DNA of 17,966 bases from an uncultured archaeon (GCA_964590575.1 CAZPWM010000020.1:1-17966), one strand, 5' to 3'. Positions 1,896-17,966 are shown, counted from the first letter of the stretch. The notes: generated by a model not told the origin, from the letters alone. Made by a program: numbers and translations.

Positions 1896-2921
1896 ATGAC
1901 TAAACTTGAGGAGGTTTCTTCGAAGCGACTTGTTATTATTGACAGCTTCGATGCGAGAATGAACCACGTACTCATGTTCGCATTTACTCTCCTTATTGGT
2001 TCTGTCTACACCTCATTTCTCTTGCTGGTATGTTCCACAATCCCTGTAGTTGCATCGGCACTCCTTCTTTTTGGGTCCCAAATTGCTATGGGGGTTCCCG
2101 CTACCAGAGCCTATTATGATCTAGGCGTGTCAAACCGAGAGAATCTCCATTTTATTGACCCCGCGAAATTCAATAGCAATGGTCAACACCATGAGGTAGA
2201 AATCTCTCTTGGAGAGATTCCTTTGATTTTCGAAAAGATAGACCTTCAGATTCAAAAATATGATAAAGGAAGCCTTGATGATCTGAGCGACCTCATATGG
2301 TTTGGGATTTTTGTCTGGGCTACCATCTCTTCAGCCTCCTTCTACCTTGGTATTAGTGGCTATCCCGTTTGTCTTGTGGGCGCAGTAGTACTAATCACTG
2401 CATGTTTTGGAAGCTATCTGAGTGGCTATTGGACTCAACGAAACTACAGTTTCGGAGATGACCTAAGCCATCTACAGTATTATGTTGAGAAACGACTTCG
2501 AGAGATTGACACACGACTCCCCGACAATGAAGCTCGATTCTTTGTCCAACTATTAGAGCGTTGGCATGTTCTGGTCCTAGTTGATTTCAGTTTACAGCTA
2601 CAACTTGGAAATGAGGCAACGTTGGAATACCACATGGGGTTTCCCTCGAATGAAACAGAACGTATTTTGCTTCAGGGTGAAGCTGATATTCTGATGAAAT
2701 TAATAGATGACCTATCGAAAATCTCTTCAATTGTTGATACTGGATGGAAAACTGAATATCACGACTCTATTGTAGTGGTCATCAATGAATCATCAGATTT
2801 CTCTGTAAACAAGCGATCTACTTTTGTTACTAGTCCAACGAATATCGACAACACCTCTCATGCTACCTCTGACATTTTTTCGAAGATTCTTTCTCTTTCA
2901 ACATGGGGTCGTTTATCTTAG
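1896..2921 (+). CDS. Hypothetical integral membrane protein (two TM hairpins plus a soluble C-terminal domain)
   Basis: Four hydrophobic segments (VLMFAFTLLIGSVYTSFLLLV, IPVVASALLLFGSQIAMGV, LIWFGIFVWATISSASFYLGI, PVCLVGAVVLITACFGSYL). ATG 1896 is preferred over 1869 because of the TATA-like tttaaa at about 1855-1860 and a GGAG RBS at 1884-1887. Confidence 0.7.
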   Translation: MTKLEEVSSKRLVIIDSFDARMNHVLMFAFTLLIGSVYTSFLLLVCSTIPVVASALLLFGSQIAMGVPATRAYYDLGVSNRENLHFIDPAKFNSNGQHHEVEISLGEIPLIFEKIDLQIQKYDKGSLDDLSDLIWFGIFVWATISSASFYLGISGYPVCLVGAVVLITACFGSYLSGYWTQRNYSFGDDLSHLQYYVEKRLREIDTRLPDNEARFFVQLLERWHVLVLVDFSLQLQLGNEATLEYHMGFPSNETERILLQGEADILMKLIDDLSKISSIVDTGWKTEYHDSIVVVINESSDFSVNKRSTFVTSPTNIDNTSHATSDIFSKILSLSTWGRLS

Positions 2922-3072
2922 CAGGATACGATATCCATAAGTGGCTCTATGATACAACGAGTTTAGAACCGCAGTCGCATAGGCTTTGATGGCGAAATCC
3001 CTGGGGATGACTATATAGTTGAAAGTCAAGCTCAAAATCGAAAAACAGTGGCTTGAATTAGAACGAAATAGT

Positions 3073-4344
3073 ATGTCCAAAATGCTACGTGATTACGAAC
3101 AATGGGAACGTCAGACTCTCAAAAAGGCACAAGAGGCAATGGACCTCAGAAGTCTTCGAAAGGTTTTCTACGAATTAGGTGATAGATGGGAGTTTGACCA
3201 AGCAACAGGTGCATGGTTATCAGAAGGTGAACCACTTGATATGGTTGGCCTCATTTTGAAAATGCCCGGCTTTGAGTCAACAAAGGAAAGGTATGTGCTG
3301 TATGCTGTAATGGCTTACTCAAAAGGACTCACTCAAAAATTCGATCATCTCGGCGATAAAGAAAGAATCATTGTTGAACATGACAAAAAAACTGGTAGCT
3401 TATCTGCTTGGTCAACAACAGGACACGGAGCGATGGATCTTTTCCCAACTGACTTATCATCTTTCAACTCAATAGAGAATGCACTCCAATCATGTTTCTT
3501 GATTGCTCAACCGGGAGATCATGCACTCAGGATAGAGTGCCCCAAAGCATCTGGTCTGTTTGACTTTCTGACAAAGCATCTATGGGATATCGCAGGCGGC
3601 ATTTCCTCTTTTGATATGAAATCTATAGATGTGCTAACTTCTAATGATATTGAAGAATACCTTGACTTCAAATTCAATAGATATGCTAAGTCTGTCATTG
3701 AATTAGATCGAATTTGGAGGAACCTGAGTGGCGGGGCTGTAGAAAAGGCAAAGGAAAAAGTTCTGGACAAGATACCTGATCACATTGAAGAGAGAAACAG
3801 AAAGACACTACGGAAAATTGAGGGGCTCCTTCATATTCTATGGTTCCGCCCCCCAGCAGAACAGTTACCTGCAATTGAAATAATGCATAATGAACTATCA
3901 CATGAACCAACGCCCACAGATGTACAGAAGAAACTTGTTCCCTACATAGTTGAGCTTGGTTATTCATTGACCGATATTCTAGAGAAGGCAAAGTATCTCA
4001 AATGGAAGAGTGTTGTTGAAAAGAAGGATTTCAGTAGTAGTGATGTTTTCAAAAAGCTTGACCTTACACAACTAGCCAAGGAGGCCTTAGTAGTTGCGCT
4101 AGAAGACATCCTGTGCGAGCATACTCTTGCATATATTGGTTATCCAGAACAGGCAACCATGAAGAACAAGGTGCTTCGAGTTCTTCTCAATTCTATTATA
4201 CTTCCAATACGACTTGGGTCCTCATTCAGAACGAATCTATTTAGATGGATAAGTAGAATTATCCCCAAAAAAGAAAAACCCAAAACCGATGAGCCTACTG
4301 TAACAGATGCTGACACTCCAAAAAAAGAGGAAACTGACTCTTGA
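3073..4344 (+). CDS. Hypothetical protein with an NPP1/Vps62-like motif set
   Basis: Long ORF; ATG 3073 is the likely start and TTG 3019 is possible. YVLYAVMAYSKG...DHLGDKERIIVE...AWSTTGHG...IAQPGDHAL resembles the NPP1 pattern (YAIMYAWYFPKD..GHRHDWE..VVW..SxHG..NHAL) and the Vps62 pattern (NHxGDWE..SxHxxG..GxHA). The family call is by eye only. Confidence 0.6.
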   Translation: MSKMLRDYEQWERQTLKKAQEAMDLRSLRKVFYELGDRWEFDQATGAWLSEGEPLDMVGLILKMPGFESTKERYVLYAVMAYSKGLTQKFDHLGDKERIIVEHDKKTGSLSAWSTTGHGAMDLFPTDLSSFNSIENALQSCFLIAQPGDHALRIECPKASGLFDFLTKHLWDIAGGISSFDMKSIDVLTSNDIEEYLDFKFNRYAKSVIELDRIWRNLSGGAVEKAKEKVLDKIPDHIEERNRKTLRKIEGLLHILWFRPPAEQLPAIEIMHNELSHEPTPTDVQKKLVPYIVELGYSLTDILEKAKYLKWKSVVEKKDFSSSDVFKKLDLTQLAKEALVVALEDILCEHTLAYIGYPEQATMKNKVLRVLLNSIILPIRLGSSFRTNLFRWISRIIPKKEKPKTDEPTVTDADTPKKEETDS

Positions 4345-5130: not shown

Positions 5131-5250
5131 ACGTAGGAGTCGGGGTACAATTGCCCCCTTGATTTTAGCATATCTATTTGTCACTAACGAATCTTGCGAC
5201 ATACTCAATAAGGCATTGAGATAGTCCGAGTTTCAAGGGTGCATCATTTC

Positions 5251-6441
5251 ATGACAAGGATTGGAATCATCGGTAATGGAGTCGCAGCTACTACTGCAGT
5301 TCGTGAGATTAGAAGTAAGGACCAGAGCGTAGAGATAGATGTCTGGACGGATGAGCGACACGGATATTATCCTCGCCCAAACCTGATAGATCTGGTCGCA
5401 AACAAGCGAACTATCAAAGAAACTATTCACTATGACCTCGATTGGTACGAGAAAAACGATGTTGACCTTTTTCTCTCAAGCCCCGTTTTCCAAATTGATA
5501 CTGAGAAAAAGAGAATCATCTCTACATCAGAAGATTATGGTGACTATGATTCCCTTCTCATTGCGGTAGGATGCCGCCCCTTCATTCCTCCCTTTGAGGG
5601 TCTCGACAAGAATAACGTTCACGTCATCAGAACGTTGGATGATGCCCTTGATATCCATGAAGCTGTGAAAGGAGCTGGTCGTGAAATCGTAATAGGAGGA
5701 GGAATTCTCGGAATTGAATTGGCTGCAGCAATGAAGGAGATCGGTGGTGACCCTATTGTGGTAGATTATGAAAAGCGTCTCCTTCCAATCCAATTGGACG
5801 ACCAAGGTAGCAAAGTTTTGACCAAACAAATAGAACGAAAGGGAATCCAAGCTCTCTTCGGTTATGAGTGTAAAGGCATAACCGGCGACGACGATGCTAC
5901 TGGTATTGTGTCAAAACAAGGCGATGAGATCAAAGGAGACCTCGTTGTTATTGCCACTGGAGTCAGATCAAATACCATCATCGCAAAGAACTCGGGGATT
6001 GATTTCCACCATGGGATTACAGTAGATGACCATATGCAGACTTCGGCTCCAGGGATATTCGCTGCAGGAGATTGCATGGAGTGGAATGGAATGTGGTATG
6101 GCATAATCCCTTGGGCTACCGCATCATCAAGAATAGCGGCGCAAAATATGCTTGAGTTTGGGAGTTCGAAGTTTAAAGGTATCACTCCTTCCAATCAATT
6201 ACAAGTAGCTGGTATAGACCTGACAAGTATTGGTATTGTCCATCCAGAATCTGCAGAATATGAGAGTGTTGTGTCAGTGAATATGGAAGAAGGCAAATAC
6301 TTCAAAGTAGTCTTGAAGGATCATATACCCGTTGGAGGAATTGCTCTAGGAAGTCGTAAGGTGGCAATGGCGTTAAGAAGTGCTATCATGAAAGGTGAAC
6401 CTGTTTCGAATATCGAGGAAACACTTTTTGAAACAGTTTAA
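5251..6441 (+). CDS. FAD-dependent NAD(P)H oxidoreductase (NirB N-terminal / rubredoxin-NAD reductase-like)
   Basis: FAD Rossmann IGIIGNGVAA, YYPRPNL motif, NAD Rossmann VIGGGILGIELA, VDDHMQTSAPGIFAAGDC, and a C-terminal LQVAGIDLTSIG dimerisation domain. No CxxxxC and no CGLP-type redox Cys. Confidence 0.9.
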   Translation: MTRIGIIGNGVAATTAVREIRSKDQSVEIDVWTDERHGYYPRPNLIDLVANKRTIKETIHYDLDWYEKNDVDLFLSSPVFQIDTEKKRIISTSEDYGDYDSLLIAVGCRPFIPPFEGLDKNNVHVIRTLDDALDIHEAVKGAGREIVIGGGILGIELAAAMKEIGGDPIVVDYEKRLLPIQLDDQGSKVLTKQIERKGIQALFGYECKGITGDDDATGIVSKQGDEIKGDLVVIATGVRSNTIIAKNSGIDFHHGITVDDHMQTSAPGIFAAGDCMEWNGMWYGIIPWATASSRIAAQNMLEFGSSKFKGITPSNQLQVAGIDLTSIGIVHPESAEYESVVSVNMEEGKYFKVVLKDHIPVGGIALGSRKVAMALRSAIMKGEPVSNIEETLFETV

Positions 6442-7724
6442 TCCAGCTCGACCTTAGGTTGTCTACCCTTACCCTGGGGTATCAATGATATCACATGGTC
6501 GGTCGAGCCCTTCAGCTCCTCCATATGAGTTACCACCAGCACCTGCTTGACAACATCGAGTTTTGCGATGGCCTCAGGTAACCACATTCTACGCTGTGCA
6601 TCTAGACCTGCACCGGGCTCGTCAAGTATTATCAGTCCAGGTGGAGGACCAGTGATCGAGTGCTTTTGAAGGGCTGTATTCACAGCAACACGCAATGCAA
6701 AGTTCACGCATACATCTTCTCCCCCTGAAGCAGACATGAGTGAAACTCTATTCCCTTGTAAATCATAGAGGACAATCTCATAGTCATCGTCGATTACCAA
6801 GTCACTGTAGCGGTCTCCAAAAATTTCACGGAAGATCAATCTCGCCTCATTCCTGATATGGGGTCTCAATTGGTTCTCTGCTATATCCGGAATTGTATCG
6901 AGTAGCACCTTGAGATGCTTGGCAATTTCAGTTTCTTCTTTCAGCTCCTCTGGTTTAGCAGACAATTCGGGAGATGCAAGTTGTTCTTCGACTGCATGTA
7001 CTGATTCGCTGACCTTCTGTATGACTTCTCGAACCTGCTTCATTGGTTGCTTCTCAATAATAGACTTCTCAAGGGTGTCCAATGCCTTCAATGCAGCATC
7101 AATTTCTTTCTTTTCTGGAAGATGCCTTTGAACTTCTTTCAATCGTTTAATTGATTCCGAGATGCTCGTAGCATCCTTGTCCATCTGTCTGATTTCTTTC
7201 TGGACCTTTGAACTCTGCTTGTCGTAGACACCAAGACCCATCATTGAGTAAAGGTCAGCTCTCCTGCTTTTGGGAGCAAGTCTTGACAGTCTGTCTATCT
7301 CTCCCTGTCGAACATAAGTTAAGGCTGAAAATGCGTGGCGGTCCAATCCAATTAGCTCTACAATCTTATTATCAACTCGTGTGACTCCAGTATCCTCAGG
7401 GTCTTTTTTTCCGACCAAGAATAATTCGGCATTCGTTTCCCCTGGATGGATTGTTCTCTTCACCATGTAGTTGCGGCGATTTATCGGAGCAACGAACTCG
7501 AGTTCGACAACAGCACGCTTTCCTTTGTGATGTATGAGATCCTCTACCTGAGGCACTTTCTTCTCCTTTCGAGTGACCATTCTGAATAGACCAAATTCAA
7601 TGGCCTCAAGGATTGATGTCTTCCCTGCCCCATTTGGTCCCACGATAGCGGTAGAACCATCTTCTAGAAAAAACTCCTGGTTTTTGTAGACCTTGAAATT
7701 TTGAAGAGCAATCCGTCTAATCAC
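6438..7724 (-). CDS. rad50: Rad50/SbcC-like SMC-family ABC ATPase with very short coiled coil and no zinc hook
   Basis: LQNFKVY strand, Walker A GPNGAGKTS, Q-loop YVRQGE, signature SASGGE, Walker B/D-loop LIILDEPGAGLD, H-switch VVTH. GTG start with GGAGG RBS, 2 nt after the mre11 stop. Only 428 aa. Confidence 0.88.
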   Translation of the reverse strand: MIRRIALQNFKVYKNQEFFLEDGSTAIVGPNGAGKTSILEAIEFGLFRMVTRKEKKVPQVEDLIHHKGKRAVVELEFVAPINRRNYMVKRTIHPGETNAELFLVGKKDPEDTGVTRVDNKIVELIGLDRHAFSALTYVRQGEIDRLSRLAPKSRRADLYSMMGLGVYDKQSSKVQKEIRQMDKDATSISESIKRLKEVQRHLPEKKEIDAALKALDTLEKSIIEKQPMKQVREVIQKVSESVHAVEEQLASPELSAKPEELKEETEIAKHLKVLLDTIPDIAENQLRPHIRNEARLIFREIFGDRYSDLVIDDDYEIVLYDLQGNRVSLMSASGGEDVCVNFALRVAVNTALQKHSITGPPPGLIILDEPGAGLDAQRRMWLPEAIAKLDVVKQVLVVTHMEELKGSTDHVISLIPQGKGRQPKVELD

Positions 7725-7726
7725 TA

Positions 7727-8803
7727 CTATGCGCCTCCAAAGAACCTTGGCATCATCTTCTTCACTTGTTCTGCACGCTTGTCCTGTGTTTGCTCCATGT
7801 ATTCTAGTATAGAGGTTTCTACATCAAGTGGTTCAGACAGTTTAACCGGTCTTGCCCCAACAGAAGACCAGTTTGGTTCGATGTGGAGAAAGAGCGGGTC
7901 AAGCTTCTTCTCTCCGTACTCTAGCAGACTAACTCTTTCAATCCCTCTTTCGGTCTCGCTATCAATCAGGCCATTTACCTCTAAAATGATGATTGGTTTC
8001 TCTTTCTTTGGAGAGAGCTTTCCAAGCGAACTTTTGAGCATAGTGTTCACTTCATCTGCTCCCATTCCTGTGATATCTAACCCGGTGACGAATTTGAACT
8101 CCCTTACGTCATTGAGGGTCTGAAGTGTGTACTCATTCTTTCCAGAGCTGTCTATGTCCACCACAATGAGCTTCTTTTTCCCGCCCATCTCCCGATTCCA
8201 ATTCACAAAACATGTTGATCCAGGTCTCCCGATGTCATACTCCTTATCAAGCCAGAAATTATGTTTGTGGCCGCAGCCATAGTAGTTGAAGTAGATTGGT
8301 AGGTTTTCTGTTTGTGTCTGAATATCATGCGCGAAGAAGAGGGCAATCTTCTCTGTAGGATTAGCAGTATTCATGAAATGTTCGAGCTGGTGATTAGAAG
8401 TCCATGACACAAGATGAATCTCCACCTTCTTACCATCGAAGGTTTCTGTGTAAGTCCTGTACGGTTCTGACCCAGTAGAAACAATGAGCTCCATAGTCTC
8501 GAGACCTCTGAGCGGACTGTAAGCGTATCTGTATCCATAGGGAAGATCGTGATTGCCATCAAGAACAATGAGGTGCACCTTATCCTTCAGACTCTTGAAC
8601 AGTTCAATCGCGAATATCATATCTTCATTCTGTGGCAAGGGTGAGTGAAAGAGATCTCCGGAATGCAGTAAAATATCTGGGCTGTGTTTCATAGCCATAT
8701 CGACAGCTTTCTTCAGACACTGACGGGCATCCTCTCTCCTCTCTGACAACTGGAAGAGTGAACTTCCCAAGTGACTATCAGAGATATGAGCGATACGGAC
8801 CAT
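7727..8803 (-). CDS. mre11: Mre11/SbcD-family DNA repair metallophosphoesterase nuclease
   Basis: All five phosphoesterase motifs (DSHLG, GDLFH, GNHD, FAH, GHKH), plus PGS, a capping domain (IIILEVNG) and a C-terminal helical Rad50-binding-type segment. GGTGA RBS upstream. Confidence 0.92.
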   Translation of the reverse strand: MVRIAHISDSHLGSSLFQLSERREDARQCLKKAVDMAMKHSPDILLHSGDLFHSPLPQNEDMIFAIELFKSLKDKVHLIVLDGNHDLPYGYRYAYSPLRGLETMELIVSTGSEPYRTYTETFDGKKVEIHLVSWTSNHQLEHFMNTANPTEKIALFFAHDIQTQTENLPIYFNYYGCGHKHNFWLDKEYDIGRPGSTCFVNWNREMGGKKKLIVVDIDSSGKNEYTLQTLNDVREFKFVTGLDITGMGADEVNTMLKSSLGKLSPKKEKPIIILEVNGLIDSETERGIERVSLLEYGEKKLDPLFLHIEPNWSSVGARPVKLSEPLDVETSILEYMEQTQDKRAEQVKKMMPRFFGGA

Positions 8804-8888
8804 TCATACTCACCACCCTATCACTTGCAAATTGTGAAGGGCGGTATTTGAATCATCTCGTCAGATGGAGTCTTATTGGATGTTTATA

Positions 8889-8990
8889 TCAGACGAATGA
8901 GAATACTACTGCTACGATGATGAAAATGAAGAGGATCATGAACATCAGATAGAATATGGCTGCATCGGGTGTTATCCCCGGTGTTTGCAT
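8889..8990 (-). CDS. Putative 33-aa single-pass membrane microprotein (not in the ORF track)
   Basis: Translates as MQTPGITPDAAIFYLMFMILFIFIIVAVVFSFV*, with a 24-residue uncharged hydrophobic run. Co-oriented with mre11 and 85 nt upstream of it. Confidence 0.5.
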   Translation of the reverse strand: MQTPGITPDAAIFYLMFMILFIFIIVAVVFSFV

Positions 8991-9184
8991 CCCTATACAT
9001 CAATCGCTGTCATCTTTCTGATCTCTTTGTCATTGACGCAGAGCTGTTCCCCCTCAAACTCCCTGAAACAAGGCACTGCTTGACTAAAAACTCCGTCCCC
9101 TCCTTCATGATATTCACCCCTTAATATAGAAGACATAATCTTATTCCGACTGGGAGAGATAAGGACCACTAAGAGTCTAGAGTC

Positions 9185-10108: not shown

Positions 10109-10136
10109 TTATTCTTCCCTCCATTACTAGAGTTAG

Positions 10137-11024: not shown

Positions 11025-12989
11025 ATGAATCCGATCCAGAATAAAATCCCTGTTGTATACTTCACAAATGGAGAACCAGAACACGGTATACTAGTATATA
11101 GTGAAAATGGGCCCAGTATACTGGATGCGATGGGATGCACAATTAATGAGTCTAACAGTGTTCTTTTCAAACTTAGGACTAACTTGAATGATTCATTGCC
11201 ACTAAAACCAGATGAGTTAGTCACTCTTCAACCTGTTTTTCAAATTAGAATGGGATACTCCCAAACCAGTATTGGTGCAGATAACATGTATCCTCCAAGC
11301 ACAAATAACTGGATTTCCCATGTTGTTGATGGTGGAGCTGAGAGTTATTATTTTGTTCAGAATATTCAAGGAACGAATAGGAAACTTTTGTCTATAATAA
11401 ATAACGATGACTCGATCCAAATCATTGCTCATAGAGTATATCCCTATGAAATAGCTTTGATAAAAATGAAGAGAGATTTAACTGCTCGTAAAGAAATGGA
11501 AGAAATAAATGCAGAACCATATGACATCTATTCAGTATTAGATAAGAACAAACCAAAATGGGATTTAATCGGAAAACTGGCTGAAGGCTTAACAATATCC
11601 AATTTATCACTTAAATCAACAATGATTGAAACACTTGAACAACTTGTTCCAGTATCTTTTCCCCTTGATACAAGAAAGCAAATCATGGCATTTCTGGCAT
11701 GGTTGGACAAAGCTGAAGTCCCAAATGTGGATCCGGTTGAATTTCGAGATAGATATGCAAAAGCCGCTGTTCTTCGTTCATTGGTTTCGGGTCATTTGAG
11801 GTGTTTGCTTGATGAAGTAGAAGCTCCTCCATATGTTCGAATCATGATGCTTGCTGATGCTGGTCAATTGAGCCTCACTGAGCGGCCAACACCAATCGAA
11901 ATTGAAAGAAATCCCTGGTTTATTGCACAATATCGGCTCTATGAATTGTTCCCAGACTGGATGGATAGAGTTTTAGATGTTGTGGAGTCTTTGAACAGAA
12001 CTGGCCAAATTATCACTAGCCTTCCTGTATCAAAGGAAGATGCAATGAAATCGAGGGAAGCATGGAGTAGTCGTTTTGCTTTAGCCTCTCAGGCGTTACT
12101 TATGAGAGGTCATGTGCAAAAGAATGCTATTGGTCTGAGGACTCTTATCTACGTTGGAGCAGCTCACAAATGGCCTCATAGGCACCTTGAATTCTCTGCT
12201 CGATTAGGATTTCAGCTGGACAAATCTTTGCAGATTCAAGTGTTGGTCCTTCCTCCCTCTGCTATCGAAAGAGTTACACGTTTGCTCCCGAATATTCATG
12301 TCATAAATTGGGAAATGAATTCGTCCAATCTGTCCCTTTATGATCGAAAGTTACGAAAATGGAAAATCAATAGTTCTACAATATTCAAATCCCTAGCACG
12401 CAGTCGTAGTTTGAAACAGCTCGAAAATGAATTTGGTACATATACAGGGAAGAAACCATTGATTCCTACTAAAGAACAAGCTATTGTACTTGATTTGATA
12501 TCTTGGTTCATGTATTTACAAGATCTGGAAAATGGACGAATATCTGAATACAATAATATCGCGACAGAAACGATAAAAGAAATTCTTAATGATCTTCGAA
12601 GAAAAGAAGTTATCCGATTCTCATATCTAATGGATATGCAAAAACTGACATCAATCTGCATTTCAGCATCAGGACCCGCAAACCATGTTTGTTCCTTGAC
12701 CCGATCGTTCTTGAAACACGCTCCAACAGCTGATACTAGAATTTCAGATAATGGTTCGTCCTCACTCATTATAGCTAGAGTTCCTGAAGATGAAGCATTT
12801 AGACTTCTAACCAATCTTCCATCAGTAGCGTTAGAAAATAAAATAGATCTGAAAGCGTATCCTATTTCAGCATATATTGGCTATAGAAATAATCTGTATC
12901 AAAGACTTCTTAGAGAGGATGGTTCTTGGGATGATGATGTGACAGGACTACTTAGCCAAGTTAGACTTCAATCTAGTGATGATGAATAG
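11025..12989 (+). CDS. 654-aa hypothetical protein with probable C-terminal winged-helix and Lrp/AsnC (RAM-like) modules
   Basis: Long ORF. TKEQAIVLDLI...RISEYNNIATETIKEILNDLRRKEVIRFSY resembles an Lrp-type wHTH and is followed by a beta-alpha-beta-beta-alpha-beta pattern (SICISASG-helix-TRIS-SLIIARVP-helix-LKAYPI). Domain call by eye. Confidence 0.6.
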   Translation: MNPIQNKIPVVYFTNGEPEHGILVYSENGPSILDAMGCTINESNSVLFKLRTNLNDSLPLKPDELVTLQPVFQIRMGYSQTSIGADNMYPPSTNNWISHVVDGGAESYYFVQNIQGTNRKLLSIINNDDSIQIIAHRVYPYEIALIKMKRDLTARKEMEEINAEPYDIYSVLDKNKPKWDLIGKLAEGLTISNLSLKSTMIETLEQLVPVSFPLDTRKQIMAFLAWLDKAEVPNVDPVEFRDRYAKAAVLRSLVSGHLRCLLDEVEAPPYVRIMMLADAGQLSLTERPTPIEIERNPWFIAQYRLYELFPDWMDRVLDVVESLNRTGQIITSLPVSKEDAMKSREAWSSRFALASQALLMRGHVQKNAIGLRTLIYVGAAHKWPHRHLEFSARLGFQLDKSLQIQVLVLPPSAIERVTRLLPNIHVINWEMNSSNLSLYDRKLRKWKINSSTIFKSLARSRSLKQLENEFGTYTGKKPLIPTKEQAIVLDLISWFMYLQDLENGRISEYNNIATETIKEILNDLRRKEVIRFSYLMDMQKLTSICISASGPANHVCSLTRSFLKHAPTADTRISDNGSSSLIIARVPEDEAFRLLTNLPSVALENKIDLKAYPISAYIGYRNNLYQRLLREDGSWDDDVTGLLSQVRLQSSDDE

Positions 12990-12992
12990 ATT

Positions 12993-15900
12993 TCATTCTC
13001 TCCACTCAGTAGGTAAGGATTCAACAACATCACGCATCTTCTTCTTCATTACAACCCCTACTACTGCTAGTATCCCGAACCCACCAACAAGAGGAGTAGT
13101 CCCTGCATCAAGTTGCAGTTGTAGAATTTCGTTTACTACAGTAACCGCCATAGGGTAGTCCTGACTATAGACAACTGGAAGCCCACTGATTATAGTGTTG
13201 AGTGTATGTGTTCCTTCCATTCGAGCATTAAACCCAATGGTCATAACCGAGTAGACCCCAATCTCGAATGTCCACTGACCCACCTCTTCTCCATTCGGAT
13301 CAGAGAGCCAAGCGTCAAGTGTCCCATTCCAGTCGGGAGTTGTACCGAGAATAGTCACTGATAGGTTCACCGAGCAGTAATATCCGATATACAAATTCGA
13401 GGTTGGTTCTATGTTCAAAACAACCACTGGAGTAATCACTAGACTTACTTCCATGGAACTTGGAGCCTGAGTCGCTGAGCCCAAGAATGATACAGTAACT
13501 GTGTGAGTTCCTGATAGGAGTCCAACTAGATTGAATGAAGCCACCCCATGACTATCAGTGGCCAAGGTTTCTTCACGCTCAACAACTCCATCTTTTGATA
13601 TAGTGAGAATAATGGTTGCCCCTGAGATCTTGCCAAGTGCTCCGTTGAGAGTTATAGAGATGGGGATTACATCACCAAAAGGCATGAGTTCAAGCATATC
13701 CACAGCAAGCGAACTAGGATATCGAACCTGTATCACTACCTCGAGAGTTGTTGTGTTTCGGAAACCATCACCCTCGAACAAGAACACAACTCGATACTCT
13801 CCCGTCAAGTTCGGGGTCCAAGAGACTTCACTTCCCTCTGCTGTGGATGTGATGGCAGTCCGGTCTGTCAGAGGACTACCATAGATTTCACGCTTTGAAG
13901 GGTTGAATATACTGACCCAAACAGTTGCATCAGTGACGGTTTCATTAAGAGAGTCCAGAAGGATGAACGAGATTGCGTGAGGCTCTGAGATGAGACCTGT
14001 TAGATCCTGTTCGGTCAGCTCAATATGTGTTTCACTCACAACAGAGAATACCAGTATTGATATGCACCCCACTCGGGTCTCAGACCACTCCACGGTTACA
14101 TTCAATGCGTAGAGCCCGACTGGTAAACCCATTGTGTTGATGGAAACTGACATCTCGCTCCAAGTCAGGTGGTCTGTGAGATTAACAGAATCTTGAGCTC
14201 CAATGAGCTCTAAAAGGACATCGAGTCCAAATAGTGGAATCGGGTCTGACAGCTCGTCGATGATGGTGATATGAATCGATGACCACACTGCACGATCAAT
14301 CTCAGCTGGAATGTCACAAGAAACCTCTGTCAATCCAAGCACCCACACCTCTAGGGCTGCGTTTGAAGCATGATAGTGTGTGGTTCCTGTGAATGAGACG
14401 ATAATCGTATAGTTGCCCATCCTGTCAACAGTAACGTTCAGAATCATAGGGTCAGTCCCAGTCTGAATGAGTGTGCCTTCAAGCACCAAGCCTAAGGTCT
14501 CATGATACGCTTCATAATGCACTGAGAATCCTTCGAGTGGCGTTCCGCCAGTGTCGACGAGAAGTATAGACAGTGAGGCTGGAGTTGTCGTTGCGATGAT
14601 ATCTCCTGTATCAATTAGAGAGAGCTCAACAACTGTCCCGTATCTAACGCTGATATCATCAGTTGTGGCAACTGGGAGATACACACCAAGACCACTGAAC
14701 GAGATGTGAAGTGTCCAGAGACCCTCGTCATCTAATGTAGAGCTCCACTGGATATGCCCAGTGGCATTCGTTATGAGACTGATTGGTCCAATGAAGTTGA
14801 TGCCTGGACCATCAACAGTGAGTGTGAGGTTTCTTCCAACAAGTAGACTACCTGCATGGTCCGTCAACTGAGAAATGACTACGAGATTATCTCCGACCTC
14901 GAGCTCATGTGTTGAAACCGTTGTAGACAACTGGGAAGCAGAGTAGATTGTATGATATGACTCTTCGATAAAGCTGTGTACCGACGTCGAACCACTGGAA
15001 GACACTTTCACGGTGTATAGACCTGCCATCGTAGGGGTGAACTGAACTACTGCTTGCCCCTCACCAACAACCACCGATATCGACATAGTGTAGGAACCAA
15101 GTTTGACCTGCTCGCCATAGGGGTTATAGAGTGAAACCGTCACGGTGAGCCCATTGATGAGGTCTCCGATTTCGTCCTCGATCCAGAGCGTGATGTTCGT
15201 GAGATTGTTGACAGCAGAAGGACTTGGTTCTAAGCTTGTTGAGATGACACAGTCGGTCATGACAATCAACTGCTTTTGGACATCTCCTCCGATCAGAAAT
15301 TGGTCCGGTGCTGGACCTGCGTTCACTCTCAGAACTCCGTGAGTTTCCACAGCTGTATAAACCACAGATGCCACGCCTGAAGAGTCTGTGACAATATCAG
15401 TACTCCACACAGGTACAAGATCCATACCTAGTACTTCGAAATGAATCGTGATGCCAACTCGAAGTCCGCTAGTCAAGTTGTAAACAAGTGTTGTCGAATC
15501 AAACAGGTCGACCTGTGCTGGGAGTAACCTGAGGTCTCCCGTTACATGCTCCAAGACGGATGCTGTGGTCGAAGTCGAGTTCGTTAAGATATACGCATCT
15601 CCCACGTGAAGAATAGTGATTGTTGCGAGACCACCTTCAGCTGGGTCCCAGTAGATACTGAGTAGACCTGTGGCTGAAGGAACCTGAAGCTCAAAGACAG
15701 TTGCACCATTCTGTTCGATTGTCACTGAGATAGTGCGCCCTGATATGTAACCACCAAGTGCATCGATATACCCTACTTGGACTTCGAAGGTCTCTCCAAC
15801 AATGCAACTAGGATTGTGATGAACCTCAATGATTGGCGTCACAAACACACGTTGCGGAACCAAGTCACTTGCAGAGGCATTGAAACCATATCCTGCGTAT

Positions 15901-17966
15901 GAAGCATTGATAACAAAGTTTCCAACACGGAGGAACTGCTGAGCGAATGTACACTTACCGAGTCCATCCGTGCACTTGAGTGTGGAGGATAGAAGTGTAT
16001 CGTTACTCCATCTGACAACGATAGTCACTTGGGCTCCTGCTAGGGGTGACCCACTCCAATCAACGAGCGTGACTACTACACCAACTACGGAGCCTTGTTC
16101 AACAGGCTGACCAGGTGTTGTGATTGTCAATGTTGTTTCAGCAAAAACCGTAGTAACATCTTCCGATGAGGTCTGGAGTAACCATCCCTGCTCTGCGAGA
16201 GAAGCTAACATCTGAAGCGTGCCTGGTGTGTCAAGAAGCAGGTTGAGCACGATTATACCGCTAACACTTGTAGTATGAAATGCATCATGGATACCAGTGC
16301 CATTCAGCGTTACGATACAATGAACTGTCGCACCTTGAACAGGAGCCAGACCCGTATCAATGACTGAAACAATCAAATCCTGTGTAATCGGAGCAACAGC
16401 ATTCGATGGTAGTGTAATAGAAATTTCAGGGGTCTCAAAAACATCCTCCATGATAATCTCACTCGCTGCCTTGTACCAGAGTTGCTTGGTTGATGTGACA
16501 ATGATTCTGTTGACCCCTCTCATGCTTGGAGTCCAGAATATTGTGGCTGGGACACTTGAGGTCACAAGCGAGTCGGTGAACAAGAGTTCATCCCCTGGAC
16601 CTCTGACTTCGACACTGATTGACAGTCCCGAAATAGGAACTGCCAAATGATTCATGGCACTGATCTCAATCCAGCTCGCAACACCAACTTCTGAATCTGG
16701 ACCAACAAGAACATTCAGGGTGACTGGTACCAGGACCTCGAAATCCATTTGGTCTATTGCAGCTCCTCTTGAGAGAGTTCCATCATATGATGCCTCTAGT
16801 CTGTATGCTCCCGCGGAGTTTGCTATCCACGTGAAACTGACTGCTCCCGAAGAGTTTGTAGTACGAGTCTGTTCAGCGATGATAGTAGATGGTAATAGAA
16901 TGACCCTCATAGTTACAGACTGTCCTTGGATTGGATTCAGTAGTGAGTCTGTGAGCTGCGCCCAGAGTGAACATGTCTTCGCTACCTCCACCTCTGCTCC
17001 AACTCCTCCGACTTGGAGATTGCTTGATGACCAAGATGTCAAAGATTCCGAGTCTAAGGTGCCAAGAAGAAGACCTGCACCTGCATAACTTGCCTGCAAC
17101 AGGTATATTCCATTTTCTGACAGAGTCAAAGTCACTGTTACATGACCTGTAGAATTAGTGGTTAGGTCTGAATCGAAGACCATGCTCATCGATGGGGCAG
17201 TCACTGTCAAATGGACTATCTGACCAGCAAGAGCCTTGCCACTCGTAGTTTCAAGTAGTACATCGAAAGAGCCTTGACTGTACTGAATCTCAATACCCGT
17301 ACCACTCCAAGAAACCCTTGTTTGCTCTGAGACTGTAATTACACCTGATGATTGACTCCCCTCAAGTGAGTAGTTTCCTGGAAAGACTATAGAGTACGAA
17401 TAGACATCCCGTGCAGCAGGACTCCATGAGAATTTGTTTGCACCAATCTTTGAAACACCTACATCATTGAAGACGACCGAATCCAGGGAGTTCATGATTG
17501 TCAGAGTCGCCTCTTGTCCTGAGATCTGGGTTGAATTAGATGCGAAGTAAAGTGACCAATCAATCAAGACCTCATCACCGACTGCTCCACTAAGGCTTGG
17601 TGAAGAGGAGATGTAAGTGGGATTTGGTTGCGCAATCGTAACCTCATCCACTAAGACTAACTGTGTACATGATGCTCGTTCAATCGTCACAGTAAATGGA
17701 TAGGTCCCGGAGTCGAATCCCGTCGTTGGAACAGAGAACCAGTATGGGGAGGTTTCATCGTAGTTCCACTCTGTTACTCCAAATGCGATTGTCACTTGGC
17801 ATTGTCCTGCATCAACGCTTCCTGCTAGAAACCAAGACGCAGTTCCATTGACATTTTCACCCATTTTGACTGTTGGAGTTTCAAGGTCTAGAGCGCCTTC
17901 TATCGTTCCTTGGACTGTAACTGCGGTCTTATCGAATGCTCTAGAAGCACCCCAATCAACCACACA
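12993..17966 (-). CDS. Giant membrane-anchored Ig-like repeat surface glycoprotein (5'-truncated)
   Basis: Frame is open to the window edge. About 16 T/S/V-rich repeats of ~100 aa with consensus LxDxxGxPIxGxxV...TxxxG...GxYxxxxxYxGxxxY, more than 20 N-x-S/T sequons, and a C-terminal TM (PLVGGFGILAVVGVVM) followed by a KKKMR stop-transfer. Confidence 0.85.
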   Translation of the reverse strand, partial: CVVDWGASRAFDKTAVTVQGTIEGALDLETPTVKMGENVNGTASWFLAGSVDAGQCQVTIAFGVTEWNYDETSPYWFSVPTTGFDSGTYPFTVTIERASCTQLVLVDEVTIAQPNPTYISSSPSLSGAVGDEVLIDWSLYFASNSTQISGQEATLTIMNSLDSVVFNDVGVSKIGANKFSWSPAARDVYSYSIVFPGNYSLEGSQSSGVITVSEQTRVSWSGTGIEIQYSQGSFDVLLETTSGKALAGQIVHLTVTAPSMSMVFDSDLTTNSTGHVTVTLTLSENGIYLLQASYAGAGLLLGTLDSESLTSWSSSNLQVGGVGAEVEVAKTCSLWAQLTDSLLNPIQGQSVTMRVILLPSTIIAEQTRTTNSSGAVSFTWIANSAGAYRLEASYDGTLSRGAAIDQMDFEVLVPVTLNVLVGPDSEVGVASWIEISAMNHLAVPISGLSISVEVRGPGDELLFTDSLVTSSVPATIFWTPSMRGVNRIIVTSTKQLWYKAASEIIMEDVFETPEISITLPSNAVAPITQDLIVSVIDTGLAPVQGATVHCIVTLNGTGIHDAFHTTSVSGIIVLNLLLDTPGTLQMLASLAEQGWLLQTSSEDVTTVFAETTLTITTPGQPVEQGSVVGVVVTLVDWSGSPLAGAQVTIVVRWSNDTLLSSTLKCTDGLGKCTFAQQFLRVGNFVINASYAGYGFNASASDLVPQRVFVTPIIEVHHNPSCIVGETFEVQVGYIDALGGYISGRTISVTIEQNGATVFELQVPSATGLLSIYWDPAEGGLATITILHVGDAYILTNSTSTTASVLEHVTGDLRLLPAQVDLFDSTTLVYNLTSGLRVGITIHFEVLGMDLVPVWSTDIVTDSSGVASVVYTAVETHGVLRVNAGPAPDQFLIGGDVQKQLIVMTDCVISTSLEPSPSAVNNLTNITLWIEDEIGDLINGLTVTVSLYNPYGEQVKLGSYTMSISVVVGEGQAVVQFTPTMAGLYTVKVSSSGSTSVHSFIEESYHTIYSASQLSTTVSTHELEVGDNLVVISQLTDHAGSLLVGRNLTLTVDGPGINFIGPISLITNATGHIQWSSTLDDEGLWTLHISFSGLGVYLPVATTDDISVRYGTVVELSLIDTGDIIATTTPASLSILLVDTGGTPLEGFSVHYEAYHETLGLVLEGTLIQTGTDPMILNVTVDRMGNYTIIVSFTGTTHYHASNAALEVWVLGLTEVSCDIPAEIDRAVWSSIHITIIDELSDPIPLFGLDVLLELIGAQDSVNLTDHLTWSEMSVSINTMGLPVGLYALNVTVEWSETRVGCISILVFSVVSETHIELTEQDLTGLISEPHAISFILLDSLNETVTDATVWVSIFNPSKREIYGSPLTDRTAITSTAEGSEVSWTPNLTGEYRVVFLFEGDGFRNTTTLEVVIQVRYPSSLAVDMLELMPFGDVIPISITLNGALGKISGATIILTISKDGVVEREETLATDSHGVASFNLVGLLSGTHTVTVSFLGSATQAPSSMEVSLVITPVVVLNIEPTSNLYIGYYCSVNLSVTILGTTPDWNGTLDAWLSDPNGEEVGQWTFEIGVYSVMTIGFNARMEGTHTLNTIISGLPVVYSQDYPMAVTVVNEILQLQLDAGTTPLVGGFGILAVVGVVMKKKMRDVVESLPTEWRE

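Follow-up and report, generated by a model that had tools for sequence, protein, structure and literature searches.

The locus described here pairs an mre11-like gene with a rad50-like gene whose product consists of an ATPase head and a short helical stub, with no zinc hook. The reading that we favor, and that we hold to be probable, is that Thorarchaeota-type Asgard archaea encode this pair on the chromosome and inherit it vertically, as an Mre11-Rad50 nuclease in which Rad50 is reduced to the head plus the stub and does not tether DNA through a hook. In Rad50/SbcC, both the zinc hook and the long coiled coils are regarded as universal and as indispensable for function. The locus was found in a stretch of 17,966 nucleotides of an uncultured archaeon, and the window denotes this whole stretch.

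The mre11-rad50 gene pair

Two genes lie on the minus strand, a 358-aa Mre11 ORF and then a 428-aa Rad50-type ABC ATPase ORF. Their features are as follows:

8804..9184, minus strand: upstream intergenic region, from the TPR-protein gene to mre11; presumed promoter site of the two-gene operon
7727..8803, minus strand: mre11-like gene (P0002), 358 aa, ATG start; metallophosphoesterase nuclease domain
7734..7738, minus strand: GGAGG within the mre11 3′ end, with the rad50 GTG 9 nt downstream; putative RBS for coupled translation
6438..7724, minus strand: miniature rad50-like gene (P0001), 428 aa, GTG start; split ABC-ATPase head and short helical stalk
7617..7640, minus strand: Walker A/P-loop GPNGAGKT, residues 29-36 (motif scan)
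6819..7232, minus strand: helical stalk, residues 165-302 (AF2 model, pLDDT 88.9)
6717..6734, minus strand: ABC signature SASGGE, residues 331-336 (motif scan)
6708-6710, minus strand: sole Cys, C339 (EDVCV), in the head just after the signature (motif scan)
6600..6638, minus strand: Walker B and D-loop GLIILDEPGAGLD, residues 363-375, with DEPGAGLD at 368
6525-6527, minus strand: His400 of the H-loop, VVTH at 397 (motif scan)

As read from the sequence, the mre11 stop codon (TAG, 7729-7727) is followed by a 2-base spacer (TA) and then by the rad50 GTG (7724-7722). Such a junction, with GGAGG 9 nt before the GTG, fits coupled translation, and the use of GTG as the start codon was supported by the relatives, since their initial M falls at the same alignment column. 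Both the tight linkage with a 2-nt gap and the ATPase length of 428 aa, which had been claimed in the original prediction, were confirmed by the ORF calls and the junction sequence. Both genes are conserved and intact, their translation appears to be coupled, and the operon promoter presumably lies within the intergenic region upstream of mre11. No tRNA or Rfam match was obtained in the whole window.

All the metal ligands of Mre11 are present in the first gene product (D9, H11, D50, N84, H85, H159, H179 and H181), and the eight residues were unchanged in 5/5 orthologues. The protein matched Pfam Metallophos with 42 bits and NCBIfam Mre11_Sulfo with 91 bits at residues 4-280 (cut-off, 500), and it was matched by the M. 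jannaschii Mre11 structures both by sequence (1.3e-12) and by profile (9e-17). The matches to solved Mre11 ended at residue 210. In a low-confidence model (pLDDT 64, 5 sequences), a beta/alpha module (residues 236-310), a putative capping domain, follows the nuclease part. Helices at 328-339 and 344-355, close to the C-terminus, could be tentatively proposed as candidate Rad50-binding elements.

The Rad50-like head and its stalk

Judging from its sequence, the short ATPase keeps every ABC catalytic motif: in addition to those listed above, a Q-loop (RQGE) is located at residue 139. The signature SASGGE and the D-loop DEPGAGLD, both noted at the outset, were found at residues 331 and 368, respectively. 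In an alignment of 33 members, the Walker A residues G29, N31, G32, G34 and K35 were invariant (33/33), and so were S333, G334, G335, E336, D337, V338 and C339 of the signature region, and D368, E369, P370, G371, G373, L374, D375 and H400. The Pfam models SMC_N and AAA_23 each matched with 80 bits. The best NCBIfam model was Rad50_Sulf (155 bits in two stretches, vs. a cut-off of 1000), and the other four NCBIfam Rad50 models scored 124-131 bits (cut-offs, 700-1087). The best sequence match in PDB was the M. jannaschii Rad50 head (1.9e-33). When the AF2 model of the head and stalk (pLDDT 88.9) was used as the query in Foldseek, the best hit of this predicted fold was 3auy_A (4.3e-24, TM 0.68/0.79), and heads of Rad50 or SbcC made up the top nine hits, of which seven came from archaeal entries (M. 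jannaschii, P. furiosus). The head is predicted to fold like the solved archaeal Rad50 heads.

The original prediction had placed a helical insert at about residues 165-300, and the AF2 model locates it at 165-302, with helices at 165-201, 205-221, 226-249 and 257-302. This insert is predicted to form a jointed antiparallel stalk of ~57 residues per arm, which would measure at most ~8.5 nm when extended and ~5.5 nm if bent back at the Leu-Pro joint. Residues L202, P203 and P279 of the stalk were invariant in the 33-member alignment, with L202-P203 forming a conserved helix break, whereas the tip (222-225) was variable, with an entropy of 3.08 bits, vs. 1.19 in helix 257-289 and 0.59-0.92 in the heads. 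The spacing from Q-loop to signature was 190-197 residues in 117/117 full-length relatives among the matches listed, and exactly 194 in 103 of the 117, a constancy that is far beyond chance; in 59 long representatives the corresponding distance ranged from 445 to 875 residues (median 567).

When the whole protein was scanned, no CxxC was found and C339 was the only Cys; furthermore, Pfam gave no match to the hook domain PF04423. With a single Cys and no Cys pair a zinc hook cannot form, as had been anticipated, and the stalk is far too short for tethering over long distances. According to PMC10418313, natural Rad50 coiled coils measure 18 nm (phages) to 60 nm (humans), and in yeast the globular domain loses functions when the coiled coil is truncated. 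Set against this precedent, a complex that functions with a stalk no longer than 8.5 nm would be an exception.

Short relatives, phylogeny and related systems

A search for relatives of the short Rad50 yielded 188 proteins (E ≤ 0.001), and the best 120 of the 188 were examined. These 120 proteins were 341-440 aa long and 59-100% identical, and the named ones were mostly labeled Thorarchaeota. CxxC was found in none of the 120, and PF04423 was absent from their precomputed Pfam lists. Members of the short family sit on contigs of up to 205 kb. In the representative library the short family is tight (P0059, 656 bits; P0124, 430 bits; P0127, 293 bits); beyond it, the scores fall to 165 bits, and proteins of 750-920 aa reach ~120 bits. 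The size of these next-best representatives, mostly 750-920 aa, agrees with the claim that a canonical Rad50 is about twice as long. A mid-protein CxxC was present in 137 of the 149 library representatives examined. We found no published description of a short hook-less Rad50 family. A membership of the protein in an already described short family had also been considered, but the protein could be assigned to no curated short family, all the NCBIfam matches being far under their cut-offs.

A quick IQ-TREE analysis of the head domain was performed with 66 rows and 301 columns, including a sample of 40 long unlabeled representatives and no SMC/RecF outgroup. In this quick tree the seven short members (7/7) formed one clade on a fairly long stem (SH-aLRT 95), and this clade grouped with P0129 and P0130 (SH-aLRT 98). 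The short clade lay within a starred group of 34 rows that includes hook-bearing archaeal Rad50s, in a tree where no branch separated the bacterial outgroup from the remaining rows. P0129 (596 aa) and P0130 (679 aa), the nearest proteins outside the short family (165 bits, 31-32% identity), are likewise without CxxC, but their coiled coil is longer and carries a hydrophobic stretch of 40-47 residues at its mid-point.

Among the known systems, archaeal Rad50 (M. jannaschii; PDB 3auy, 3av0, 5dny and 5f3w) shares with the short protein a split ABC head, the same five motif types, and the location of the ATPase gene beside an Mre11 gene; indeed, this natural Thorarchaeota protein resembles the head-only Rad50 constructs that were engineered for crystallography. 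However, the hook-bearing representatives are mostly 750-920 aa long, vs. 428 aa here, they have the CxxC/PF04423 hook that the short Rad50 lacks, and in the archaeal herA-mre11-rad50-nurA cluster herA and nurA adjoin the pair, whereas neither was found next to it here. The two-gene design of an ATPase and a phosphoesterase is also common to bacterial SbcCD and phage T4 gp46/gp47. The predicted fold of the short Rad50 strongly matched the E. coli SbcC head (7yzp_C, 4e-19), and the best phage matches were cyanophage gp46-type genes, with only ~25-29% identity along the N-terminal half. In an Atlas feature search, viral SbcC-like clusters of ~570 aa ranked first. The SbcC/gp46-type homologues are 544-1048 aa long, vs. 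428 aa here, and PMC10418313 gives ~18 nm as the length even of phage coiled coils and describes a conserved CPXC hook.

Two further relatives belong to the SMC/Rad50 superfamily. The RecF profile reached only the N-terminus (55 bits, vs. a cut-off of 172), and RecF carries a short helical insert. The profile of the ASRPs (ClsN, Sph) scored 42 bits (cut-off, 300), and the vast majority of ASRPs have a zinc hook, according to the part of PMC9389158 at hand. Unlike the short Rad50, neither RecF nor the ASRPs are partnered with Mre11.

Genomic context and role of the pair

At least four full-length related loci (L001-L004) were viewed within ±10 kb. In all four a 359-361-aa Mre11 lies directly before the short Rad50. 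Downstream, the convergent oxidoreductase is full-length (396-397 aa) in three of the four, and in L001 an ORF of the same families is shortened to 307 aa; a HAD hydrolase and two unknown ORFs come after it, as in the window. The neighborhood is metabolic, with the oxidoreductase, the HAD hydrolase and an ABC transporter. The absence of adjacent herA and nurA, which the original prediction had pointed out, held both among the 13 window ORFs (Pfam, NCBIfam) and among the 37 neighbor ORFs of L001-L004 (Pfam, ±10 kb), several of which have no assigned family. It is weak evidence; in mesophilic archaea mre11-rad50 is often unlinked from herA-nurA. Likewise, a canonical rad50 was detected neither in the window nor at L001-L004 (±10 kb).

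The conserved metabolic neighborhood and the near-constant length favor vertical inheritance over a defense island. In the mechanism that we propose for the favored Mre11-Rad50 nuclease, two heads would engage around two ATP to form a DNA-binding groove, and an Mre11 dimer would dock, through its C-terminal helices, onto helix 257-289, where the stalk base is conserved. ATP hydrolysis would then gate DNA ends or hairpins into the Mn2+ site. The binding of Mre11 to Rad50, the ATPase activity and the nuclease activity are all inferred. Since the tip of the stalk is variable and the hook is absent, the complex would act locally in sensing and cutting DNA ends, with no hook-mediated bridging of ends or of sister chromatids; any encirclement of DNA would have to rely solely on the heads, Mre11 and the short stalks. 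A conserved, naturally occurring pair that has no hook and whose stalk does not exceed ~8.5 nm would be a minimal system in which to study the contribution of the coiled coil to ATP-gated nuclease control, and a compact target for structures of the full-length complex. Of the original view of an MR-type complex, the distinct conserved pair and the lack of long-range tethering (hook-less, short stalk) were supported, and the anti-MGE nuclease role was not.

Whether the pair acts beside another Rad50 bears on its meaning. Thorarchaeota-type Asgard archaea might have no Rad50 other than the short protein, a head-only machine from a branch in which the apex is exchangeable, although we regard this as a tentative proposal. 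If it were true, a lineage near the eukaryotic stem would have dropped the zinc hook and the long coiled coils, the essentiality of hook-mediated tethering would be challenged, and a natural experiment would be available on which Mre11-Rad50 functions need tethering. Together with the sister proteins, in which a membrane-like hydrophobic hairpin occupies the position of the hook, it would reveal a Rad50 branch with an exchangeable apex module. An equally tentative possibility is that this is a second, specialized Mre11-Rad50 paralogue, with a canonical hook-bearing Rad50 (with HerA/NurA) elsewhere in the genome, so that labor would be divided between tethering and non-tethering complexes, the short one acting on a subset of substrates, e.g., hairpins or blocked ends, for which tethering is not needed. 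A paralogue is consistent with the separate clade and its rather long stem, a clade whose sisters P0129/P0130 are also non-canonical, with a hydrophobic apex for a hook, and with the Rad50 and Mre11 equivalog scores, all far under cut-off. It is also consistent with the generality of NurA in Asgard lineages, which suggests a classical resection machinery in the superphylum, although Thorarchaeota is not among the lineages listed in the available part of PMC13748450. On the other hand, of 486 longer relatives (750-2140 aa), the best 120 included no named protein from Thorarchaeota or other Asgard archaea, which is weak evidence, whereas the named short relatives are mostly Thorarchaeota, and neither canonical rad50 nor herA or nurA appeared within ±10 kb in the window and the at least four loci.

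A role as an anti-phage or anti-plasmid module, in which an ABC ATPase sensor would act with a nuclease effector as in MAD3-MAD4, OLD/Gabija, Lamassu or Septu, is improbable. Short ABC ATPase plus nuclease pairs are a common defense design, and PADLOC mad3 was the strongest single full-length profile match to the short Rad50 (115 bits, E 1.3e-33), with weaker PADLOC matches to PbeC, LmuB, AriA, DndD and PtuA (45-75 bits, at the ATPase level only); the Mre11 weakly matched the NCBIfam "anti-phage phosphoesterase" (25 bits, vs. a cut-off of 420). However, the Rad50 profiles outscored mad3 (155 vs. 115 bits). MAD3, an ABC ATPase, is similarly compact and of comparable length, but its partner is MAD4, related to OLD-family nucleases and not to Mre11, according to the available part of PMC13662399. 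MADS also comprises further genes, including a methyltransferase, while here the partner is a metallophosphoesterase and no other MADS gene was found nearby, nor any other PADLOC system gene among the six ORFs scanned. Lamassu, Dnd-Pbe, Septu and PARIS were rejected, as their partners (LmuA/LmuC, Dnd/Pbe genes, PtuB and AriB) were not found in the window. No methyltransferase or other defense gene was detected among 13 window ORFs (Pfam, NCBIfam), six ORFs analyzed with PADLOC, or the 37 neighbor ORFs (Pfam). In 50,697 phage and 72,556 plasmid records, the listed matches reached only ~34% identity, and only one place among them covered ≥80% of the query. The anti-MGE role originally put forward has little support, given the conserved housekeeping neighborhood, the contigs of up to 205 kb, the generic nature of the PADLOC ABC-ATPase similarity, and the low identity to phage and plasmid proteins.

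Finally, coiled-coil regions are of low complexity and could collapse in a metagenome assembly, but an artefact of this kind, whether a collapse or deletion in the coiled-coil repeat or a decaying full-length rad50 pseudogene, is effectively refuted, since many assemblies, independent of one another, yielded the short length again, in at least 120 protein clusters: the 117 full-length relatives among the matches listed come from NCBI, JGI, ENA and Logan assemblies with near-constant spacing, the stalk has its invariant residues, the AF2 model is continuous (no segment with pLDDT <50), and the catalytic motifs are all intact. Full-length hook-bearing orthologues at this locus, also raised as a possible objection, were not the form encountered, the short form being present in 4/4 of the at least four full-length loci.

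The mre11–rad50-like gene pair and its products

The original prediction, made from the sequence alone, described tightly linked mre11 and rad50-like genes with a 2-nt gap, and an ATPase of only 428 aa that has one Cys and no CxxC. The ORF calls and the sequence of the junction bear out this observation, and the motifs it named are all present and intact. The two genes and the ATPase motifs are as follows:

7727-8803, (-) strand: mre11-like gene, 358 aa, ATG start, ORF call
6438-7724, (-) strand: mini rad50-like gene, 428 aa, GTG start, ORF call

ATPase motifs, by residue
29: Walker A, GPNGAGKT
139: Q-loop, RQGE
331: signature, SASGGE
368: Walker B/D-loop, DEPGAGLD
397: H-loop, VVTH

The genes are coupled: the mre11 TAG stop (7729-7727) is separated by 2 bases from the rad50 start at 7724, and a GGAGG sequence lies 9 nt 5′ of the rad50 GTG, within the 3′ end of mre11. 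The single cysteine of the ATPase is C339, in the sequence EDVCV.

The ATPase matched SMC_N and AAA_23 in Pfam (~80 bits each), and the Rad50 zinc-hook domain was not found in this Pfam search. Its top NCBIfam models were five archaeal Rad50 equivalogs (124-155 bits), with the matches split into two stretches that correspond to the two head halves, and these scores are far under all five equivalog cut-offs (700-1087 bits). The nearest solved structures by sequence were Methanocaldococcus jannaschii Rad50 head constructs (1.9e-33). An AlphaFold2 model made from 33 family members was confident (pLDDT 88.9, pTM 0.76), and when the predicted fold was compared with the PDB by Foldseek the best matches were Rad50 head chains, mostly archaeal (3auy_A, 4.3e-24, TM 0.68/0.79), followed by the heads of E. 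coli SbcC and human RAD50. Hence, the natural short ATPase looks like the head-only Rad50 constructs made by crystallographers. It departs from canonical Rad50 in having neither the long coiled coil nor the CxxC hook and in scoring under the curated threshold, and since these are three defining tests of a canonical Rad50, it was classed as a variant and not as an ordinary member. The short protein appears to be Rad50-derived and Rad50-like in its working.

The gene located 5′ of the short rad50 encodes a metallophosphoesterase that is nearest to archaeal Mre11. It matched NCBIfam Mre11_Sulfo (91 bits, residues 4-280) and M. jannaschii Mre11 (1.3e-12 by sequence, 9e-17 by profile). The Mre11 metal ligands D9, H11, D50, N84, H85, H159, H179 and H181 are all present, and they are invariant in five of five orthologues. 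The fold of this protein was predicted from 5 sequences only (pLDDT 64), and the putative Rad50-binding helices depend on this weak model.

Conservation and proposed descent of the short Rad50 family

Relatives of the ATPase were sought among proteins of 235-749 aa, and 188 were found. The best 120 of these 188 are 341-440 aa long (median 429), are 59-100% identical, and stem from NCBI, JGI, ENA and Logan assemblies, some of them being located on contigs of 170-205 kb; most of those that are named carry the label 'Candidatus Thorarchaeota archaeon', and a few carry other Asgard names. None of these best 120 carries a CxxC, 105 have a single Cys, and the zinc-hook domain PF04423 is absent from the Pfam listings of all 120. 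The spacing from the Q-loop to the signature was 190-197 residues in the 117 full-length short members, and exactly 194 in 103 of them; in 59 long representatives the median was 567 (range 445-875). When 1.84 billion representatives were searched exhaustively with HMMER, the full-length family representatives P0059, P0124 and P0127 scored 656, 430 and 293 bits, respectively. Beyond the short family, two proteins of 596 and 679 aa scored 165 bits, and the next ones, mostly of 750-920 aa, scored ~120 bits. A mid-length CxxC was observed in 137 of the 149 representatives examined. The short Rad50 is a tight protein family.

The public annotation labels of the short relatives are 'AAA family ATPase' or 'SbcCD ATPase subunit', and the clusters retrieved by a feature search were generic SbcC/AAA_23 only, mainly viral. 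In the literature consulted on Rad50 and Mre11 of Thorarchaeota and other Asgard archaea, including passages of PMC13748450, PMC12993045, PMC9389158, PMC8665677, PMC12153180 and PMC4898445, we found no description of the short hook-less form, although the asCOG tables (Liu et al. 2021) may already list the family.

A head-domain tree (301 columns, coiled-coil columns removed; LG+G4 with SH-aLRT, short search) was built from 66 rows, i.e., 7 short members, 5 hydrophobic-apex proteins, 14 long Rad50/SbcC proteins with names and a sample of 40 from the ~130 unlabelled long representatives. The short family formed one clade (SH-aLRT 95), the outcome that the original prediction had proposed to look for, and P0129 and P0130, the nearest relatives outside the family, were its sister (support 98). 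Both lie within a starred 34-row group that includes hook-bearing Rad50s labelled Nitrososphaerales, Nezhaarchaeota, Methanobacteriota and Altiarchaeales, in a tree that had no SMC or RecF outgroup and that no branch divided so as to set the bacterial outgroup apart. This placement fits a descent of the short family from canonical Rad50 in which most of the coiled coil was lost.

The five hydrophobic-apex proteins, P0129 (596 aa), P0130 (679 aa), P0164, P0213 and P0264, are Rad50-like and also have no CxxC. At the mid-point of the coiled coil of P0129 and P0130, a hydrophobic stretch of 40-47 residues stands in place of the hook; such strongly hydrophobic, transmembrane-like mid-stretches (e.g., P0129 278-318 and P0130 312-358) are seen in all five, and these proteins may have a membrane-anchored Rad50 apex. 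A protein search with P0130 returned only P0130 itself and canonical Rad50s at ≤35% identity.

The stalk and the proposed working of the complex

In the AlphaFold2 model, the insert between the head halves of the ATPase is predicted to form helices at 165-201, 205-221, 226-249 and 257-302. The ascending arm breaks at the invariant L202-P203, 37 residues above the head, and the descending arm at 250-256, at about an equal distance. Because the heights of the two breaks match, the insert was read, from the list of secondary structures rather than from coordinates, as a putative jointed antiparallel stalk of ~57 residues per arm. On the same basis, its predicted length would be at most ~8.5 nm when extended and ~5.5 nm with the distal hairpin folded back. 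Natural Rad50 coiled coils range from 18 nm in phages to 60 nm in humans, each with a conserved CPXC hook at its end, and engineered truncations of the yeast coiled coil cripple head-associated functions, according to the review PMC10418313.

Entropy was lowest in the heads (0.59-0.92 bits). The helix at the descending base (257-289) had 1.19 bits, with P279, A282, E283, Q285, R287 and P288 fully or almost invariant, and this conserved base fits, by analogy with solved complexes, the place where Mre11 binds Rad50. The tip of the stalk (222-225) was the least conserved part (3.08 bits, with indels), a pattern that argues against a conserved apical dimerisation device. A complex prediction for a pair of stalks (residues 160-305), meant to show whether the apex or stalk self-associates and run without controls, scored 0.20 against a mark of 0.42, and is evidence neither way.

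We consider it fairly probable that the pair is a genuine Mre11-Rad50 nuclease acting as a head-plus-stub machine. The two heads would engage upon ATP binding to form a DNA groove, with the Mre11 dimer held on the conserved base of the stalk; ATP hydrolysis would then allow DNA ends or hairpins to reach the Mn2+ site, and there would be no bridging through hooks. The intact motifs, the coupling of the genes, their conservation and their synteny are observed, the folds are predicted, and binding, catalysis and the absence of tethering are inferred. The crippling effect of the yeast truncations speaks against this reading, as does the weakness of the model behind the putative Rad50-binding helices of this Mre11. 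A second, specialised complex that works alongside a canonical hook-bearing one is an unlikelier proposal, although one to be taken seriously; no Asgard archaeon was present among the named proteins in the best 120 longer relatives, which argues weakly against it.

Genomic neighbourhood and the remaining alternatives

Species-representative genomes were scanned with the family alignment and two patterns, one of which, LDEPG[AS]GLD, also picks up ordinary ABC ATPases. Among the matches listed, 4 of 49 loci (L001-L004, in MAGs of Thorarchaeota and 'Promethearchaeota') hold true family members; the remaining 45 were short Walker-B/D-loop matches, nearly all bacterial plus one haloarchaeon. Contigs that carry the short pair are JABCTV010000049, JABCSP010000098, CAZSWP010000036 and JBHLPF010000022. 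In all four loci a gene for a 359-361-aa Mre11 lies directly 5′ of a 428-432-aa Rad50, so that the short form, and not a full-length hook-bearing orthologue, occupies this position at these four loci. The window genes on the side of rad50 include:

5239-6441, (+) strand: rubredoxin-reductase-type flavoprotein gene, convergent with rad50 (4-nt overlap)
3019-4344, (+) strand: family-less ORF, 441 aa, soluble, charged tail; no Pfam/NCBIfam/PADLOC family
1869-2921, (+) strand: family-less ORF, 350 aa, hydrophobic membrane-like segments; no Pfam/NCBIfam/PADLOC family

As in the window, a full-length convergent pyridine-nucleotide-disulphide oxidoreductase (396-397 aa) is found in three of the four loci; in L001 this ORF is shorter (307 aa vs 396-400 aa elsewhere) and matches the same families. 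In the loci that reach far enough, it is followed by a HAD hydrolase, two family-less ORFs (~442 and 330-351 aa) and an ABC transporter. Counterparts of the 350-aa and 441-aa ORFs accompany the mre11-rad50/oxidoreductase/HAD block in L001, L003 and L004. Both ORFs were considered as divergent HerA or NurA and rejected, since neither has a P-loop motif or a family match and the 350-aa product, with its long hydrophobic stretches, reads as a membrane protein. Upstream of mre11 the flank differs between loci.

Several local features were also observed. In L001 (3363-7620) the otherwise conserved block is locally rearranged, the HAD hydrolase being preceded by an inserted 985-aa ORF that weakly matches a lamin-tail domain. 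In L003 (8093-8677) a rubrerythrin gene lies just 5′ of mre11; the link between oxidative-stress genes and the repair operon beside them may be incidental. In L004 (1-5001 of contig JBHLPF010000022.1) the region about 4-9 kb 5′ of the pair holds a RadA/Rad51 recombinase (2721-3788, (-) strand), an XPD/DinG-like helicase (1-1656, (-) strand) and four small family-less ORFs. RadA and the helicase, 5-9 kb away, were seen near the pair in only one locus, whereas two loci extend far enough upstream to show them, and this may be a coincidence.

Scans of the 13 window ORFs against Pfam and NCBIfam (and of 6 of these against PADLOC) and of the 37 neighbour ORFs of the four loci (Pfam only) detected neither HerA nor NurA, and no methyltransferase, integrase or recognised defence gene, in agreement with the earlier remark that herA and nurA are not adjacent, and in phage and plasmid collections nothing was nearer than ~34% identity. 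The conserved neighbours, the lack of defence genes and the lack of close phage or plasmid relatives therefore point to a vertically inherited pair in a core chromosomal neighbourhood rather than to a defence island. This context is at odds with a defence module, and although the ATPase has a full-length PADLOC match to mad3 (115 bits), it is outscored by the Rad50 models, and the MAD3 partner is an OLD-family-type nuclease according to PMC13662399; hence, we regard a defence role as improbable. The interpretation of the original prediction is partly supported: it stands as regards a distinct, conserved, hook-less Mre11-Rad50-type pair, and has little support as regards an anti-MGE nuclease. 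That the short gene is an artefact of assembly collapse, which the original prediction had named as a possible refutation, or of decay, has virtually no chance of being true, because 117 full-length relatives from many independent assemblies are equally short, with near-constant spacing.

The other end of the window holds two large ORFs:

11025-12989, (+) strand: 654-aa ORF; no Pfam/NCBIfam/PADLOC family
12993-17966, (-) strand: giant ORF, >1656 aa, open at the window end

The 654-aa ORF comes after an AT-rich intergenic stretch of ~900 nt that starts at 10109 (GC 0.36-0.38 vs ~0.44 elsewhere). The giant ORF carries repeated bacterial Ig-like (Big_1, Big_3_5), filamin and CarboxypepD_reg-like domains, and it probably encodes a protein of surface or adhesin type.
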